A stretch of 35,890 nucleotides of DNA from a virus. Lineage: Duplodnaviria > Heunggongvirae > Uroviricota > Caudoviricetes. Shown piece by piece: positions 1 through 34,472 of the stretch. A program made the translations under genes and the position numbers. The DNA lies in the IMG/VR virus record IMGVR_UViG_2909303794_000009; one strand, given 5' to 3'. Every line of letters begins with the position of its first letter. Positions within the stretch are counted from its first letter, which is position 1. The notes under the pieces were generated by a model that did no database searches, was not told the DNA's origin, and saw only the letters and a program-made list of their open reading frames with translations.

Positions 1-585
1 CTATTCGATAATGGGTACTGTTGGCCATTCAATATCCGGTGCAGTTGTTGTATTAACACGGTTCAGCAACACCCGATATTTTTTCCAGGCTTCCAGCAAT
101 GAGGTTTCTTCCTCCGTTGCGATCTCCAGATCTACAGCATCCTGAAGTGGCGCTATATGCTCACTGGCTACCTGCATCAGGCTGTTTTTTGTTTCTTCCG
201 CCTCCCGGATCCGGAACAGTTTTTCTGCTTCCGTATCCTTCACCCAGGCTGTGCCGTTCCACTTCTGATATTCCCCTTCCGGCGATAACCAGGTGACATT
301 TTCCGGTAACGAGCCAAGTTCAGAAATAAATAACGCGTCGCCGGAAGCCACGTCATAGACGGTTTTTCCCCGATGATCTTCAACGAGATGCCACGATGCC
401 TCATCACTGTTGAAAACAGCCACAAAGCCAGCCGGAATATCTGGCGGTGCAATATCGGTACTGTTTGCTGGCAGACCTGTATGAGGCGGAATATATGCGT
501 CACCTTCACCAATAAATTCATTAGTTCCGGCCAGCAGATTATAAATTTTTATGGTCCGTGCTTGTTCACTCATTCTGAATGCCAT
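1..585 (-). CDS. tfa: Tail fiber assembly protein (lambda Tfa-like, 194 aa)
   Basis: ORF-track protein [24 protein letters not shown]... matches lambda Tfa as I recall it in length and sequence; start overlaps the stf stop by 1 nt (ATGA). Confidence 0.9.
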
Positions 586-3996: not shown

Positions 3997-4596
3997 TCAG
4001 AATTTATAACCGACACCCACGATGAAACCGTCAGTGCGCCAGTCACCACTGCCGGAGCCTTCATAAGCAATATCAATGGCCACGGATTCGGTCGGGTTAA
4101 ACTGCACGCCAGCTCCCCACGCCAGAGACGTGTTGCTGTGGCGACCGTCATCACTTCCGGTCAGCACGTCGTGCGTTTTCCCCTTGTTGTCAATTACGCG
4201 GAGATAATCCCCGGAGAAAGTCGACACACGGCTGTAAGCCACACCCGCCATCGCATACGCGCTGAACCATTCATTCACGCGCACAGACGGCCCCGCCATT
4301 ACGCTGAACCAGCGGTTACGCACGGAATCTTCATGCCAGCGGGTATCGCTGTAACGGGTAAGCTGGCGATTCTTGTCTCCTGCATAGCTGAATGACGTCA
4401 CCATTCCCAGCGTGTCCGTAAACTCATAACGGTATTTCACGTTAATCCCGTTCAGATCATCGCTGCCGGAAACGTTCGTCGAGGCATGAAGATAGCCCGC
4501 GCTCAGCGTGGACTGATGTTCAGACGCCCATGCAGGCGCACCGGATACGGCCAGACAGATGGCTGCGGACAAAATGGCGGCATAAAGTTTACGCAT
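3997..4596 (-). CDS. lom: Outer membrane protein Lom (Ail/OmpX-family beta-barrel, 199 aa)
   Basis: Signal peptide [24 protein letters not shown], ends in aromatic ...GVGYKF typical of OM beta-barrels; lambda Lom-like sequence and position between J and stf. Confidence 0.9.
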
Positions 4597-4662: not shown

Positions 4663-7600
4663 TCAGCTGATACTGATACCTGCTGTGGATTTTTTCATCA
4701 CCACAACCAGCAGATCGCTGATACTGGTTGTTGGTGTCCAGTTATTCGCTCCTGATGAAGATACGGTGAATGTCAGTGTCAGCGTCCCCTGTCCGGCAGG
4801 CATATCTATAACGGAGGAAAATACGCCCTGAGCATCCGTCGTGGACTGATTAAAAATCTCCTGACCATTGCGGGTCACTCTTAACCGGCAGGTTGAATAC
4901 CAGTATGACTGTTGGTTATTACTGTTGAAATTCTCATGCTTACCACCGCGGAATAACACTGGCGGTATCATGACCTGCCGGTCAAATTTCTGATCATCAC
5001 TGATTCTTACCGTGATGGTGCCACTGGCATAAGTGCTCGTGCGGGGGAAAGACTTGCTGACCGTTTTGACAATATCGCCTTCAATCTGATTGGCTGACAG
5101 TTTCCCCTTAATCTGACAGTTCTCATTAATCGTGACGTTGTTGAGCGTCCCGGAGTTCGCATTCACACTGCCACTGATATCCGCATTTTTAGCGGTCAGC
5201 TTTCCGTCCGGTGTCAGGGAAAAGGCCGGAGGATTGCCGCCGCTGGTAATGGTGGGGGCCGTCAGGCGCTTCAGGAACACTTCATTCATGAATATCTGAT
5301 CACCCTGACCAACAAACATCGGTTTTGTGTTGCCATTCGCAGGATTAATCATCGCAATCCTGTCTGCCGCCAGCAGCACCTGACTCTGCATTCCTGCTGG
5401 CGTATTCTCAATACCGGCACCGATACCCGCAATATAAAGGCGTCCGTCCTTCATCTGTTGCAGCTTCACAGCCCACATGCTGTTCAGATTATTATTTGTA
5501 TCAACCTGAACCTTCTGTATCTGCTGGATCGCTGCACTCTGGTCTTCCAGTTTCTTATTGACGGTCTGTGTGATTTCATTGCTGACATCCGTAATGGACG
5601 TCCTGATTTCAGCCAGGTCAGGCGCAAGCTGACCGTTATCAATCTGCGTCCACAGCTCCTGAGCCAGATGGGTTTTCCCTATCTCGCCTTTGAAAAAATC
5701 CAGATAGCCTGATGCATCATCACTCGGCTGACCGACAGCCTCCACGAATGCCGATTTGCCAACGGTGTTCACACTGCGAACGTAAAAATAATAATCATGG
5801 CCCGGTTTGATATTGATACTGGCGGCTATCCAGTACAGTGCCGTACCAAGATAACGCGCGCTGGTTTCAACCTGCCTGATATCCGCAATCCGTTTTTCCG
5901 AGAACCAGAACTCAAACTGTACCGTCGGGTCATAAACCGCAAGATGCGGCGTGGCGGTTATCTGAAAATAGCCCGGCGTCAGCTCAATCCGCGACGGCGC
6001 TGCCGGTGCGGCAATCCGGAACGATACCGACGCCGGATCGCCCTGCTGCCCCCACGCATTTACTGCCCGGACTGTCAGCCTGTAGTTCCCCAGAGCCAGT
6101 TGTGTGAAGCGGTAAGTGGTTTCCGTCGTCCGGGCCGTGCTGACCAGCCGCTCACGGCCGTCATCCGCTGCCACGGTCAGGCGAAGCAGGAAGCTCACGC
6201 CCTTCACCACCTTCGGCGTGTCCCAGCGGGCCAGCACCTGGTATTCCCCGCTGTCTGCGGTGACTTCTGCGGTCAGGTGCTGCACCGCTGGCGGCGTGAC
6301 ACCATTTACCGTGCCGCTCTGGTCGCCGTCAAAGTGCGCCCCGTTATCCACGATGGCCTCTTTTTCCGGTACATGCTGCACGGCGGTGATGGCATACGTG
6401 CCGTCGTCGTTCTCACGGATACTCACGCAGCGGAACAGGCGCTGGCGCAACGTCGGCAGCTTCAGCCCCCATACGCTGTATTCAGCAACGCCGTCAGGAA
6501 CACGGCTCACTTTCACCTTCACGCCGTCGGTGACGGACTGAACCTCCACGCTGACCGGACTCCCCTGCCCGTCAACCAGGCTTATCAGCGTGGTGCCGGA
6601 AGATGGCAGCGTGATTTCACGGTCGAGCGTCAGCGTCCGGGTCTGGCTGTTTACCGCCAGCACGCGCCCGCCGGTGCGGATACCGGCATAGTCATCATCG
6701 CAGATTTCAATGACATCGCCCGGTACATGGCGAAGCCCTTCGGCACCCACGCTGAAGTCCACGGTCTGCGTTTCCAGCAGTTCTGTTTTAATCAGCCACA
6801 GCCCGGCGCGGTGTGCCTGCCCCCGGCTGGTACAGCCAAAAGCATCCATCTTCGTGACGTTACGACCGTAACGGGCAATGGCCTGCGTGTCCTCCACAAG
6901 CTCTGTCGCCGTCTCCCAGCCGTTATTCGGGTCAATCCAGTTCACCTCAACGGCATTATGGCGGTCCTTCAGGGCGCTGAAGCTGTAGCGGAACGGCGCA
7001 CCATCATCCGGCATCACCACATTACTGCGGTTATAGGTCCACACCTTATCCGACGGTCGGTCCTGCACGAACGTCAGCGTCTGCCCGTTCCATACCGGCA
7101 TACAGCGCATCGCAGAGCAGAAATCACTGAGCACATCCCACGCCTTGCGCTGTGTGGTCAGGTACGCATTACAGGTGATGCGCGGCTCCGTGCCGCCAAA
7201 ACCGTCCGGCACCGACTGATCGCAATGCTGGCCGATGACATACAGCGCCCATTTGTCCACATCCGCCGCACCAAGACGTTTCCCCATGCCGTAGCGCGGA
7301 TGGGTCAGCATATCCCACAGACACCAGGCCATGTTGTTGCTGTATGCTGGCTTAAACGTTCCGTCCCAGATACCGCTGTATTGCCGCGTCTGCGGGTTAT
7401 AGTTCGACGGCACCTGCAGAATGCGCCCACGCAGATGATAATTACGACTCACCTGCTGACTGCCGAACTGCTCCGAGTCCACCTGTACGCCGACCAGTGC
7501 CGTGTTCGGGTAGCACTGTTTCACATCGATGATTTCGGTATATGACGACCAGAGCGTTTTGTTCTGCAGCTGGTCTGTGGTGCTGTCCGGCGTCATCCTG

Positions 7601-8145
7601 CGCATCCGGATATTAAACGGGCGCGGCGGCAGGTTATCCACCACCACCGAGGCCAGATACTGTGAGGTGGTTTTTCCCTTAATGGTGATGTCTTTTTCCG
7701 TCACCCAGCCACCGTTACGCTGTATCTGAACCAGCAGGCGGACTTCCGACGGATTCCGGTCCCCCTTTGAGGTGGTTTCCACCAGTGCCTGCACACCGAA
7801 AGTAAAGCGCAGACGATCGATGTTTGCCGACGTGATGGTGCGGGTGATCGGCGTGTCGTATTTCACTTCCGTACCCAGCACCGTCTCAGAGCCGGAGGAT
7901 TCAAATCCCTCCGGCGGTGTCTGCTCCTGCTCACCGGCCCGGAACACCACCGTGACGCCGGAGATGTTGGTATTACCTTCACTGTCCAGCACCGGCGTAC
8001 TGTTCAGCAGCACGCTTTTTAATCCATCCACCGGACCTTCAATCGGCCCTTCGCTGATGGCATCAATCACACTCAGCAACTGCGTGGATTTGAGGTTGTC
8101 CTTCGCTTCGCGCGGGGTATGCCCCTTACTGCTGCCTTTACCCAT
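4663..8145 (-). CDS. J: Tail tip host-specificity protein J (central tail fiber), 1160 aa
   Basis: N-terminus [34 protein letters not shown]... is lambda J-like; the C-terminal ~150 aa diverge from lambda J. Confidence 0.9.
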
Positions 8146-27113: not shown

Positions 27114-28166
27114 TTATTTCCCCACCAGTTCACTTACCTCTTTCACCGTCTGATTAAACCGCTCTGACTCAAGTTCAACACCTAACGCCCGACGCCCCAG
27201 CGCCATTGCCGCTTTTATTGTGGAACCGGATCCCATAAAGAAATCAGCAACCAGATCGCCTTGTCGACTACTGGCACTGATTATTTGCCGGAGCATATCC
27301 GCAGGCTTCTCACACGGATGTTTACCCGGGTAGAACTGAACGGGTTTATGCGTCCAGACATCGGTATAAGGCACGGAAACTGATACGGAGAAATAGCGCC
27401 GGAGAGTTTTAAACTCATCCAGCAATTCAGAATATTTGCGATTCAGTGAATCATAAGATGCCACCAGCTGGTGGTGTGGTTGTTCCAGTTGTTGTTCCTG
27501 AAATTTCTCTGCCGCTATACGGGAAAACAGTGCCTGCAACTTCCGGTAGTCAGCCTCATTCGGCAACTGCCACTGACTGGCACCAAACCAGTGGGAAACC
27601 ATATTTTTCTTACCAGTGGCTTCGGCAATCTGTTTTGCCGTTATACCCAGTTCGGCACGAGCATCCCTGAAATACGAAATCAGCGGTGCCATTATGTGCT
27701 GTTTGAGTTGACTTTCTTTTGCCGCATAGCCGTCACTTTTGCCGCGATATGGTCCCTGGTAATGTTCAGCAAACAGAACGCGTTCTGTTGCGGGAAAATA
27801 TGCGCGCAGACTTTCTTTATTACACCCGTTCCATCGTCCGGACGGCTTCGCCCAGATAATATGGTTAAGAACGTTGAAACGTTCACGCATCATGATCTCG
27901 ATATCAGATGCGAGGCGATGTCCACAGAACAGGTAAAGGCTTCCGGCAGGTTTCAGCACCCGCCAGAACTGAGCCAGACAGTGGTCCAGCCACTTCAGGT
28001 AATCTTCGTCCCCTTTCCACTGATTGTCCCAACCGTTGGGTTTCACCTTGAAGTACGGCGGATCGGTAACAATCAGGTCAATGGAATCATCAGGCAGGGA
28101 CTGAATAAAATGCAGGCAATCAGCGTTGATTAAATCAACACTGTTTATTTTCACAGTATTTTTCAT
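27114..28166 (-). CDS. Orphan DNA methyltransferase (N6-adenine/N4-cytosine type, beta-class motif order), 350 aa
   Basis: N-terminal catalytic motif IV DPPY (…IDLIVTDPPYF…) and C-terminal SAM-binding motif I (…DFFMGSGST…); no adjacent restriction endonuclease gene. Confidence 0.85.
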   Translation of the reverse strand: MKNTVKINSVDLINADCLHFIQSLPDDSIDLIVTDPPYFKVKPNGWDNQWKGDEDYLKWLDHCLAQFWRVLKPAGSLYLFCGHRLASDIEIMMRERFNVLNHIIWAKPSGRWNGCNKESLRAYFPATERVLFAEHYQGPYRGKSDGYAAKESQLKQHIMAPLISYFRDARAELGITAKQIAEATGKKNMVSHWFGASQWQLPNEADYRKLQALFSRIAAEKFQEQQLEQPHHQLVASYDSLNRKYSELLDEFKTLRRYFSVSVSVPYTDVWTHKPVQFYPGKHPCEKPADMLRQIISASSRQGDLVADFFMGSGSTIKAAMALGRRALGVELESERFNQTVKEVSELVGK

Positions 28167-29084: not shown

Positions 29085-30167
29085 ATGAAAAAATTAACAG
29101 TGGCAATTTCTGCTGTAGCTGCATCAGTACTGATGGCGATGTCTGCTCAGGCAGCTGAAATTTATAATAAAGACAGTAACAAGCTGGATCTGTACGGGAA
29201 AGTTAATGCTAAGCACTACTTCTCCTCTAATGATGCAGATGATGGTGATACTACTTATGCCCGTCTTGGCTTCAAAGGTGAAACCCAAATCAACGATCAA
29301 CTGACTGGTTTCGGTCAGTGGGAATATGAATTCAAAGGCAACCGCGCTGAATCTCAAGGTTCCTCCAAAGATAAAACCCGTCTTGCCTTCGCTGGCCTGA
29401 AATTCGGTGACTACGGCTCCATCGATTATGGCCGTAACTACGGTGTAGCATACGATATTGGTGCATGGACCGACGTTCTGCCAGAATTCGGTGGCGATAC
29501 CTGGACCCAAACAGATGTATTCATGACTGGTCGCACCACAGGTGTTGCAACTTATCGTAACAACGACTTCTTTGGTCTGGTTGATGGCCTGAACTTTGCA
29601 GCTCAGTATCAGGGCAAAAATGACCGAAATGAAGTAACTGAAGCTAATGGCGATGGTTTCGGTTTCTCAACTACTTATGAGTATGAAGGATTCGGCGTGG
29701 GTGCAACCTATGCTAAATCTGATCGCACTAATAATCAGGTTATCCTCGGTAACAACGGTCTGAATGCTTCTGGTAAAAATGCTGAAGTATGGGCAGCTGG
29801 TCTGAAATATGATGCGAACAACATCTATCTGGCCACCACCTATTCTGAAACCCAGAACATGACTGTTTTTGGTAATAACCATATTGCCAACAAAGCACAA
29901 AACTTCGAAGCTGTTGCACAATATCAGTTCGACTTCGGCCTGCGTCCATCCGTTGCTTACCTGCATTCTAAAGGAAAAGACTTGGGTGTTTGGGGTGATC
30001 AGGACCTGGTTGAATATGTTGATGTAGGTGCAACCTATTACTTCAACAAAAATATGTCCACTTTTGTTGACTACAAAATCAACCTGATTGATAAGAGCGA
30101 TTTCACGAAAGCATCTGGCGTTGCTACCGATGATATCGTTGCTGTAGGTATGGTTTACCAGTTCTAA
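29085..30167 (+). CDS. nmpC: Outer membrane general porin, NmpC/Lc/OmpC-family (360 aa with signal peptide)
   Basis: [40 protein letters not shown]… signal peptide and mature N-terminus, C-terminal …VAVGMVYQF; the ORF track begins 17 codons earlier at an alternative start codon. Confidence 0.85.
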
Positions 30168-30182
30168 TTTGATTACTAAAAG

Positions 30183-30225
30183 ATATGTTGTGGGAGGCTT
30201 TGCCTCCCCAACATATAAGTGGCTC
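30183..30225 (-). terminator. Candidate tR'-like terminator downstream of Q (minus-strand orientation)
   Basis: Minus strand ATATGTTGGGGAGGC-AAA-GCCTCCCACAACATAT followed by CTTTT; located ~130-170 nt downstream of the Q stop, as expected for a short pR' leader. Confidence 0.3.
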
Positions 30226-30304
30226 CCTCAAGCCACTTCCTTTAGAAGCACAACCTTGCTTCTAACTATACAAACCTTCTGTTATATATTACCCTTTATT
30301 TTTG

Positions 30305-30332
30305 GGGGCGCTTCAACGCCCCATTTTTAATA
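30305..30332 (+). terminator. Putative intrinsic terminator of the porin gene
   Basis: Plus strand GGGGCG-CTTCAA-CGCCCC followed by ATTTTTAAT. Confidence 0.45.
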
Positions 30333-30355
30333 ACTTTTAGTAAATAATTGGCGTA

Positions 30356-32037: not shown

Positions 32038-32364
32038 ATGACTAAAAATACACGTTTTTCCCCCGAGGTCCGTCAACGGGCAGTTCGTATGGTTCTGGAA
32101 AGTCAGGGCGAATATGACTCTCAATGGGCGGCAATTTGTTCCATTGCCCCAAAGATTGGCTGTACACCAGAGACTCTGCGTGTGTGGGTTCGTCAGCATG
32201 AGCGGGATACCGGGAGTGGTGATGGTGGACTCACCACCGCTGAACGTCAGCGTCTGAAAGAGCTGGAACGTGAAAATCGTGAACTGCGCCGCAGTAACGA
32301 TATCCTTCGCCAGGCTTCCGCTTATTTTGCGAAGGCGGAGTTCGACCGCCTCTGGAAAAAATAA
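32038..32364 (+). CDS. IS3-family transposase OrfA (HTH, 108 aa)
   Basis: [59 protein letters not shown]… recognised as IS629-group OrfA; ends in an A-rich run (A AAA AAT AA) overlapping the orfB start. Confidence 0.85.
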
Positions 32365-33251
32365 TGCCGCTGCTGGATAAGCTGCGTGAGCAGTACGGGG
32401 TCGGACCGGTATGCAGTGAACTGCATATTGCCCCGTCAACGTATTACCACTGTCAGCAACAGCGACATCATCCTGATAAACGCAGTGCCCGTGCTCAGCG
32501 CGATGACTGGCTGAAGAGAGAGATACAGCGCGTATACGATGAAAATCATCAGGTGTACGGTGTGCGTAAAGTCTGGCGCCAGTTGTTACGCGAAGGTATC
32601 AGGGTGGCCAGATGTACAGTGGCGCGCCTCATGGCGGTTATGGGACTTGCCGGTGTTCTCCGGGGTAAAAAGGTCCGTACTACCGTCAGCCGGAAAGCCG
32701 TTTCCGCAGGCGACCGCGTAAACCGTCAGTTCGTGGCAGAACGTCCTGACCAGCTGTGGGTGGCTGATTTTACTTACGTCAGCACATGGCAGGGCTTCGT
32801 CTATGTGGCGTTCATCATTGATGTGTTTGCCGGATGTATCGTGGGGTGGCGAGTCTCATCGTCTATGGAAACGACATTCGTGCTGGATGCACTGGAGCAG
32901 GCGTTGTGGGCCCGTCGGCCGTCCGGCACAGTCCATCACAGTGATAAAGGTTCTCAGTATGTATCACTGGCCTATACGGAGCGACTAAAAGAAGCAAAAC
33001 TGCTGGCATCAACAGGGAGTACAGGTGACTCGTATGACAACGCGATGGCGGAGAGCATCAATGGTCTTTACAAAGCGGAGGTAATACACCGTAAGAGCTG
33101 GAAAAACCGTGCAGAAGTGGAACTGGCCACACTCACGTGGGTGGACTGGTATAACAATCGACGATTGCTGGGAAGGCTGGGTCATATCCCTCCGGCAGAA
33201 GCAGAAAAAGCTTATTATGCTTCCATCAGAAACGATGATCTGGCAGCCTGA
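32364..33251 (+). CDS. IS3-family transposase OrfB (DDE integrase core, 295 aa)
   Basis: …LWVADFTYVSTWQGFVYVAFIIDVFAGCIVGW…HSDKGSQYVS…DNAMAESINGLYKAEVI… DDE-type catalytic core. Confidence 0.85.
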   Translation: MPLLDKLREQYGVGPVCSELHIAPSTYYHCQQQRHHPDKRSARAQRDDWLKREIQRVYDENHQVYGVRKVWRQLLREGIRVARCTVARLMAVMGLAGVLRGKKVRTTVSRKAVSAGDRVNRQFVAERPDQLWVADFTYVSTWQGFVYVAFIIDVFAGCIVGWRVSSSMETTFVLDALEQALWARRPSGTVHHSDKGSQYVSLAYTERLKEAKLLASTGSTGDSYDNAMAESINGLYKAEVIHRKSWKNRAEVELATLTWVDWYNNRRLLGRLGHIPPAEAEKAYYASIRNDDLAA

Positions 33252-33295: not shown

Positions 33296-33423
33296 TTCCC
33301 TCCTCCGGTTAAGGATGGAAGAGAGTATCTGTTCCACGAATCAGCGGTAAAGGTTGACTTAAATCGACCAGTAACAGGTAGCCTTTTGAAGAGGATCAGA
33401 AATGGGAAGAAGGCGAAGTCATG
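33296..33423 (+). pseudogene. xis: Excisionase xis, 5'-truncated remnant (C-terminal ~42 codons only)
   Basis: Frame immediately after the IS right end reads FPPPVKDGREYLFHESAVKVDLNRPVTGSLLKRIRNGKKAKS*, the lambda Xis C-terminus, with its stop overlapping the int start; the N-terminal ~30 codons are absent. Confidence 0.7.
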
Positions 33424-34472
33424 AGCGCCGGGATTTACCCCCTAACCTTTATATAAGAAACAATGGATATTACTGCTACAGGGACCCAAGGACGGGTAAA
33501 GAGTTTGGATTAGGCCGAGACAGGCGAATCGCAATCACTGAAGCTATACAGGCCAACATTGAGTTATTTTCAGGACACAAACACAAGCCTCTGACAGCGA
33601 GAATCAACAGTGATAATTCCGTTACGTTACATTCATGGCTTGATCGCTACGAAAAAATCCTGGCCAGCAGAGGAATCAAGCAGAAGACACTCATAAATTA
33701 CATGAGCAAAATTAAAGCAATAAGGAGGGGTCTGCCTGATGCTCCACTTGAAGACATCACCACAAAAGAAATTGCGGCAATGCTCAATGGATACATAGAC
33801 GAGGGCAAGGCGGCATCAGCCAAGTTAATCAGATCAACACTGAGCGATGCATTCCGAGAGGCTATAGCTGAAGGCCATATAACAACAAACCCGGTCGCAG
33901 CCACTCGCGCTGCAAAATCAGAGGTAAGGAGATCAAGACTTACGGCTGACGAATACCTGAAAATTTATCAAGCAGCAGAATCATCACCATGTTGGCTTAG
34001 ACTTGCAATGGAACTGGCTGTTGTTACCGGGCAGCGAGTTGGTGATTTATGCGAAATGAAGTGGTCTGATATCGTAGATGGATATCTTTATGTCGAGCAA
34101 AGCAAAACAGGCGTAAAAATTGCCATCCCAACAACATTGCATGTTGATGCTCTCGGGATATCAATGAAGGAAACACTTGATAAATGCAAAAAGATTCTTG
34201 GCGGAGAAACCATAATTGCATCTACTCGTCGTGAACCGCTTTCATCCGGCACAGTATCAAGGTATTTTATGCGCGCACGAAAAGCATCAGGTCTCTCCTT
34301 CGAAGGGGATCCGCCAACCTTTCACGAGTTGCGCAGTTTGTCTGCAAGACTCTATGAGAAGCAGATAAGCGATAAATTTGCTCAACATCTTCTCGGGCAT
34401 AAGTCGGACACCATGGCATCACAGTATCGTGATGACAGAGGCAGGGAGTGGGACAAAATTGAAATCAAATAA
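33402..34472 (+). CDS. int: Integrase (tyrosine recombinase), lambda Int (356 aa)
   Basis: MGRRRSHERRDLPPNLYIRNNGYYCYRDPRTGKEFGLGRDRRIAITEAIQANIELF… essentially identical to lambda Int as recalled; followed by the att site. Confidence 0.95.
   Translation: MGRRRSHERRDLPPNLYIRNNGYYCYRDPRTGKEFGLGRDRRIAITEAIQANIELFSGHKHKPLTARINSDNSVTLHSWLDRYEKILASRGIKQKTLINYMSKIKAIRRGLPDAPLEDITTKEIAAMLNGYIDEGKAASAKLIRSTLSDAFREAIAEGHITTNPVAATRAAKSEVRRSRLTADEYLKIYQAAESSPCWLRLAMELAVVTGQRVGDLCEMKWSDIVDGYLYVEQSKTGVKIAIPTTLHVDALGISMKETLDKCKKILGGETIIASTRREPLSSGTVSRYFMRARKASGLSFEGDPPTFHELRSLSARLYEKQISDKFAQHLLGHKSDTMASQYRDDRGREWDKIEIK

Follow-up and report, generated by a model that had tools for sequence, protein, structure and literature searches.

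The J protein encoded in this window, the whole 35,890-nucleotide stretch of DNA that was analysed, is lambda-like in its N-terminal part and departs from lambda J at its C-terminus, which raises the question of what outer membrane protein it would bind. The original prediction was that a receptor other than LamB is used, on the grounds that the end of J differs from that of lambda J. The peptide quoted in its support was found exactly as written in an intact open reading frame (ORF) of 1160 amino acids (Table 1), and the translated protein matched the NCBIfam profile NF049904 (lambda_TipJ) with 2393.8 bits, the cutoff being 1950, and residues 1–1160 were aligned to a profile of 1163 positions. 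This full-length, above-cutoff match makes J a member of the Lambda TipJ/gpJ family. The Pfam domains found in J are Phage-tail_3, FNIII-A_GpJ, Ig_J, Ig_J_second, Phage_Tail_Tip (residues 872–1000) and Ig_GpJ_C (residues 1037–1160), the last of which is the C-terminal receptor-binding domain (RBD), and they follow the order of the gpJ family: a hub, two FNIII/Ig domains, a helical shaft with a beta-prism fibre, and a C-terminal Ig-like RBD. The solved structure of lambda J has chains to which residues 1–835 could be aligned. The position of the gene is also that of J, between I on one side and lom, stf and tfa on the other, in the usual order H-M-L-K-I-J-lom-stf-tfa. Upstream of J on the minus strand are I, K, L, M and H and then the head genes, and PGAP names the neighbours of J as tape measure, minor tail protein L and C40 peptidase. 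The window holds the late genes of a lambda-like Escherichia coli prophage, encoded on its minus strand.

Several other features of the prophage were observed alongside J. The lom-like protein is only 47% identical to lambda Lom and represents another swapped cassette, adjoining the RBD. Within tfa there is an Rfam IS009 match (positions 44–242, minus strand; 225 bits, gathering score 117) that lies wholly inside the gene, and the IS009 family was probably built on this conserved prophage sequence. An ORF between the lysis and porin genes (27114–28166, minus strand) gave weak, split hits with models for adenine-specific DNA methyltransferases, and the IS3-family element is located just upstream of a gene for an integrase-like tyrosine recombinase (33402–34472), probably near the prophage end. 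Complete E. coli genomes contain prophages with 98.9% identity to the tail end of the window. Since defects are common among the lambdoid prophages of E. coli, and this one carries the IS3 element at ~32.3–33.3 kb adjoining the integrase-like gene, J could be an inactive remnant whose receptor specificity has no present function. We regard this as very unlikely, as J itself is intact and so is every tail, head and lysis ORF around it, and these neighbours are 96–97% identical to their counterparts in phages that form plaques, Chlobot and mEp332 among them. For the head and tail genes the figure refers to DNA, and the plaque-forming lambdoid phages matched at this level also include 434. We infer that the J of this prophage is expressed and functional.

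To locate the divergent part of the protein, J was compared with lambda J (NC_001416) and identities were counted per 25-residue block. There were 23–25 identities per block up to residue 800 and 24–25 over residues 951–1000, and from residue 1001 to the end the count was 7–16. N1002 is the first residue to differ from lambda in this last stretch, and the 159 residues from there to the C-terminus (1002–1160) have 43% protein identity to lambda, with indels in the loops. At the same boundary the DNA identity to lambda changes from 100% to about 42–62%, and a step this sharp, as read from the alignment, is a recombination joint and not the product of chance drift. The lower fibre immediately before it (residues 961–1000) is 100% identical in DNA to both lambda and phage 2H10. 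The divergence noted at the C-terminus is therefore confirmed, though the interval first given for it (4663–5200) was somewhat too wide, as the divergent part stops at 5142 and the remainder encodes 19 conserved fibre residues (983–1001). The accompanying description of J as lambda-like for most of its length holds for residues 1–815 and 956–1001 and overlooked a second diverged block at about residues 816–955. The DNA of this block is 87–100% identical to phage 21 and 8–63% identical to lambda, and it includes a 28-amino acid insertion relative to lambda; the names alpha-helical shaft and upper beta-prism fibre that we use for it follow Ge and Wang 2024 (PMC11101478). DNA identity profiles along J have clean mosaic joints, and J as judged from these profiles is a mosaic of at least four pieces: one of lambda type (1–815), one of phage 21 type (816–955), one identical in lambda and 2H10 (956–1001) and one of 2H10/phi330 type (1002–1160).

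Table 1. Positions in the window of J, its mosaic pieces and RBD landmarks, and other genes and elements of the prophage.
Feature	Position	Strand	Basis or remark
tfa, tail fibre assembly, 194 aa	1–585	-	94% identical to lambda Tfa
stf, side tail fibre, 1117 aa	585–3938	-	Pfam phage_tail_N, Gp34_trimer, Collar, Phage_fiber
lom-like outer membrane protein gene, directly downstream of J	3997–4596	-	Ail/OmpX family match
J, central tail fibre/tip attachment protein	4663–8145	-	Intact 1160-aa ORF in the ORF list
Variable RBD of J, residues 1002–1160 and stop codon; OmpC-binding class (A8/2H10/phi330) by similarity	4663–5142	-	Sequence identity
Predicted contact hairpin 2, ANNWTP, J residues 1133–1138	4732–4749	-	phi330 AlphaFold3 model on OmpC
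Predicted contact hairpin 1, J residues 1071–1080	4906–4935	-	phi330 AlphaFold3 model on OmpC
Codons for S1037 and T1038 (N and S in A8)	5032–5037	-	Only RBD residues differing from A8; TSTY against TNSY in A8
Lower beta-prism fibre of J, residues 956–1001	5143–5280	-	Conserved with lambda
Second mosaic block of J, phage-21-type alpha-helical shaft and upper fibre, residues ~816–955	5281–5700	-	DNA and protein alignment
Lambda-type hub and FNIII/Ig domains of J, residues 1–815	5701–8145	-	~98% protein identity to lambda J
General porin gene, intact, NmpC/Lc type	29085–30167	+	
Spacer between porin gene and Q-like gene	30168–30355		
IS3-family element	32319–33251	+	Rfam ALIL frameshift pseudoknot 32319–32435; transposase orfB 32364–33251

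Lambda-type J proteins fall into classes according to their RBDs, and the C-terminus was aligned with J proteins of known receptor, as had been proposed. The RBD in the window is 99–100% identical to the class of A8, 2H10, PhiR30_1 and phi330, for which the receptor is OmpC. Identity is 81–82% to the class of phages 21, 4A7 and mEp460 (LamB being the receptor of phage 21), 77% to that of BP-4795 and 1717, 63% to that of Stx2a_WGPS2, 45% to the 434 class (OmpC per the cited literature) and 43% to the lambda class (LamB). Lambda J (PDB 8xcj, 8iyk) belongs to the same family and has the same domain order as the J studied here, yet the high identity to its residues 974–1132 that would mark a LamB-binding, lambda-class RBD, and that was named beforehand as evidence against a new receptor, is absent. 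Nor is there near-identity to the phage 21 RBD, which has the same length and differs by 30 substitutions; the RBDs of 4A7 and mEp460 are 99% identical to that of phage 21. Phage 434, with its classical h434 host range, has the same J scaffold and the same receptor as the J described here according to the cited literature, but its RBD lacks high identity to the one in the window, is 5 residues longer and has other loops, and it is a separate lineage that binds the same porin. With the A8/2H10/phi330 class, whose dependence on OmpC has been shown, the match is one of near-identity and extends to the DNA, where the RBD is 98–100% identical to 2H10 and phi330. The Stx2a_WGPS2 class is probably the donor class of a second OmpC chimera, 1A2, whose RBD scored 152 bits against Stx2a_WGPS2 and at most 79 bits against other classes, although this is a rough assignment from error-ridden supplement DNA. 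The DNA of both 1A2 and A8 in the Nature supplement had been machine-read with many indel errors, and the A8 protein was taken from the PDB alignment.

Based on these identities, the RBD of J very probably binds OmpC instead of LamB, a lambda-type RBD having been replaced by recombination. A search against chains of solved structures aligned "A8 gpJ 713" (PDB 9wca, 9wcb) to the last 295 residues of J, and 157 of the 159 RBD positions (99%) are identical to A8 gpJ. A8 was built by joining lambda gpJ to the C-terminal end of a naturally occurring gpJ variant, which makes OmpC the receptor in place of LamB (Brodel et al., Nature 2024, PMC11338833); its donor allele is one found in phages 2H10 and PhiR30_1. 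When OmpC was supplied from a plasmid to MG1655 cells deleted for ompC and lamB, A8 gpJ delivered DNA into 95.2% of cells, compared with 1.9% for wild-type lambda J (PMC11338833). Lambda carrying this J C-terminus was the host-range experiment put forward with the prediction, and it has thus in effect been published for a sequence that differs at 2 of 159 residues (PMC11338833). Up to the residue corresponding to 1001 in the window, A8 does not differ from lambda J, so the 159-residue domain alone carries the receptor switch. The RBDs of A8 and of J are equal in length and share the conserved junction with a lambda-type lower fibre; the two proteins differ in that A8 is engineered and has the short shaft of lambda, whereas J is a natural mosaic with a phage-21-type shaft that is 28 amino acids longer. 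The entry 9wcb contains three A8 gpJ713 chains and three chains of OmpC (Outer membrane porin C), and from this chain content a trimer-on-trimer complex of the near-identical A8 domain with OmpC has already been solved. We found no published account of 9wca and 9wcb, and a full-text literature search returned only the lambda–LamB paper.

A third line of evidence, independent of the A8 chain and of the 9wcb complex, comes from the Stx2a siphophage vB_EcoS_phi330 (PV189401), whose J is 100% identical to residues 983–1160, including S1037 and T1038, the two positions at which A8 differs. These two residues sit in a short loop, T1036–Y1039, that corresponds to T918–Y921 of phi330, and in the AlphaFold3 model of phi330 this loop makes no contact with OmpC (PMC12502783). 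Among 54 Keio (BW25113) knockouts of outer membrane proteins, phi330 failed only on the ompC deletion, and complementation with Plac-ompC restored its plaques (PMC12502783). Since lamB is undeleted in the Keio ompC deletion strain, LamB is not sufficient for phi330. Outside of the shared end the two phages are less alike: upstream of residue 983 their J proteins have 31–45 identities per 50-residue block, and phi330 is a Pankowvirus with stx2a, while the window has lambda-type structural genes; in both, a lom gene follows J. As for PhiR30_1 and the other PhiR phages derived from ECOR that have the same RBD, a literature search did not turn up a paper with receptor data. A 2026 receptor-prediction preprint was set aside as a source, as its subject is GpJ in Drexlerviridae and their relatives and not the C-terminal domain of lambda-type J. 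The OmpC-binding RBD is therefore already known: a natural phage has had its receptor determined, a chimera has been engineered and a complex is in the PDB. Others have shown dependence on OmpC, independence from LamB and physical association with OmpC for sequences identical or nearly so to this RBD, and all three would be expected of this prophage. A8 failed on some natural OmpC variants, with A8, 1A2 or both working on 21 of 23 (PMC11338833), so host range would depend on the OmpC allele.

The relationship to phage 21 calls for some caution, as LamB is the native receptor of this phage even though its RBD and that of lambda have only 46% identity. An RBD that is 81% identical to that of phage 21 might likewise still use LamB, and the hairpins of phi330 predicted to contact OmpC (Table 1) are unchanged in both phage 21 and the window, which would fit such a view. 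However, phi330, with an RBD 100% identical to the one studied here, cannot infect the ompC deletion strain in which lamB is undeleted, the A8 chimera is functional in cells deleted for lamB, and thirty RBD residues separate the window from phage 21, leaving continued use of LamB extremely improbable. These differences cluster at residues 1047–1060, 1087–1107 and 1119–1131, and because the contact hairpins do not differ from those of phage 21, OmpC and LamB must be told apart by residues among the 30. Phage 21 had also been considered as an OmpC user, which would have backed OmpC through the 81% identity, and this was rejected as the papers show LamB to be its native receptor. In published coevolution experiments phage 21 gained the use of OmpC in 12 of 12 replicates, and in the lineage characterised this took one mutation in J; the phage evolves to OmpC and then to OmpF. 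With a native LamB user one J mutation away from OmpC, specificity is labile in this RBD lineage. Lambda and phage 21 (46%) share LamB, phage 21 and the window (81%) differ in receptor, and 434 and the window (45%) share OmpC, so dissimilarity to lambda alone predicts nothing. The original prediction of a new receptor was borne out, and the receptor can now be named from near-identity to characterised OmpC binders, but divergence from lambda was not sufficient evidence for it, as phage 21 illustrates. The receptor of a J protein is predictable only from near-identity to a characterised RBD.

The side tail fibre has an Ala/Ser/Thr-rich low-complexity stretch at about residues 110–470 and a His-rich tip with GAHTHS repeats. 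Its tip is 67% identical to the C-terminal part of lambda Stf (orf-314), with indels in the repeats, and given this limited identity its target may differ from the OmpC bound by the Stf of Ur-lambda. That OmpC dependence stems from side fibres and not from J, as OmpC binding by the Ur-lambda fibre and the 67% identity of the Stf tip might suggest, is scarcely credible, since A8 particles remain OmpC-dependent with a lambda-P2 side fibre that is directed to LPS (PMC11338833), the partner of OmpC in 9wcb is the J fragment itself, and the stf region is annotated as fragments in the phi330 record.

With OmpC as the probable receptor of J, adsorption can be pictured on the model of lambda. J would trimerise to form the hub and central fibre, and the three Ig-like RBDs at its tip would dock on the OmpC trimer. 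Initial, reversible contact is probably mediated by Stf and Tfa, given the similarity of Tfa and of the Stf tip to those of lambda. When lambda binds LamB, the RBDs spread at their base and the beta-prism is twisted by newly formed hydrogen bonds. The helical shaft flips and is converted in part to beta-strands, the strings of FNIII domains come loose and the hub opens (PMC11101478). By analogy, the same chain of events may take place in the J of this prophage, ending in hub opening and DNA ejection; a lambda-like trigger is suggested by the lower fibre, which is identical to that of lambda, and by the fact that lambda hubs function with the A8 RBD. The longer shaft of phage 21 type should lengthen the fibre.

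The prophage also encodes a porin of its own, 91% identical both to Lc of phage PA-2 and to the first nmpC fragment of DLP12, where IS5 disrupts the gene. The spacer that follows the gene has ~97% DNA identity to the nmpC-quuD spacer of DLP12, which we take to encode IpeX, an sRNA that is reported to repress OmpC and OmpF. An Rfam scan of the window gave no IpeX match, and the K-12 record does not list an ipeX feature. It is possible, but on balance doubtful, that the OmpC-targeting J works together with the porin gene and the spacer, such that a lysogen swaps its porins and hides the receptor of its own virions. If true, the swap would prevent superinfection and the loss of progeny on cell debris, and it would extend the old precedent of phage PA-2 (Lc) and not introduce a new principle. 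The porin gene is present in 42 phage records across several RBD classes, including those of phage 21 and 434, and the records of 2H10, phi330 and the Stx phages with this RBD lack it, so the gene has no strict link to this RBD.

The RBD allele itself is widespread. A search of 5426 complete E. coli genomes found the 483-bp RBD-coding stretch at ≥99% DNA identity in 948 records and at 95–99% in 573 further records, often in several copies per genome. In addition, 44 phage records carry the RBD at ≥95% protein identity, and most of these are Stx1a- and Stx2a-converting phages. Assigning OmpC to a very common tail tip allele of E. coli prophages aids the prediction of host range and lysogenic spread, and it is relevant to the Stx1a and Stx2a phages that have the same domain.
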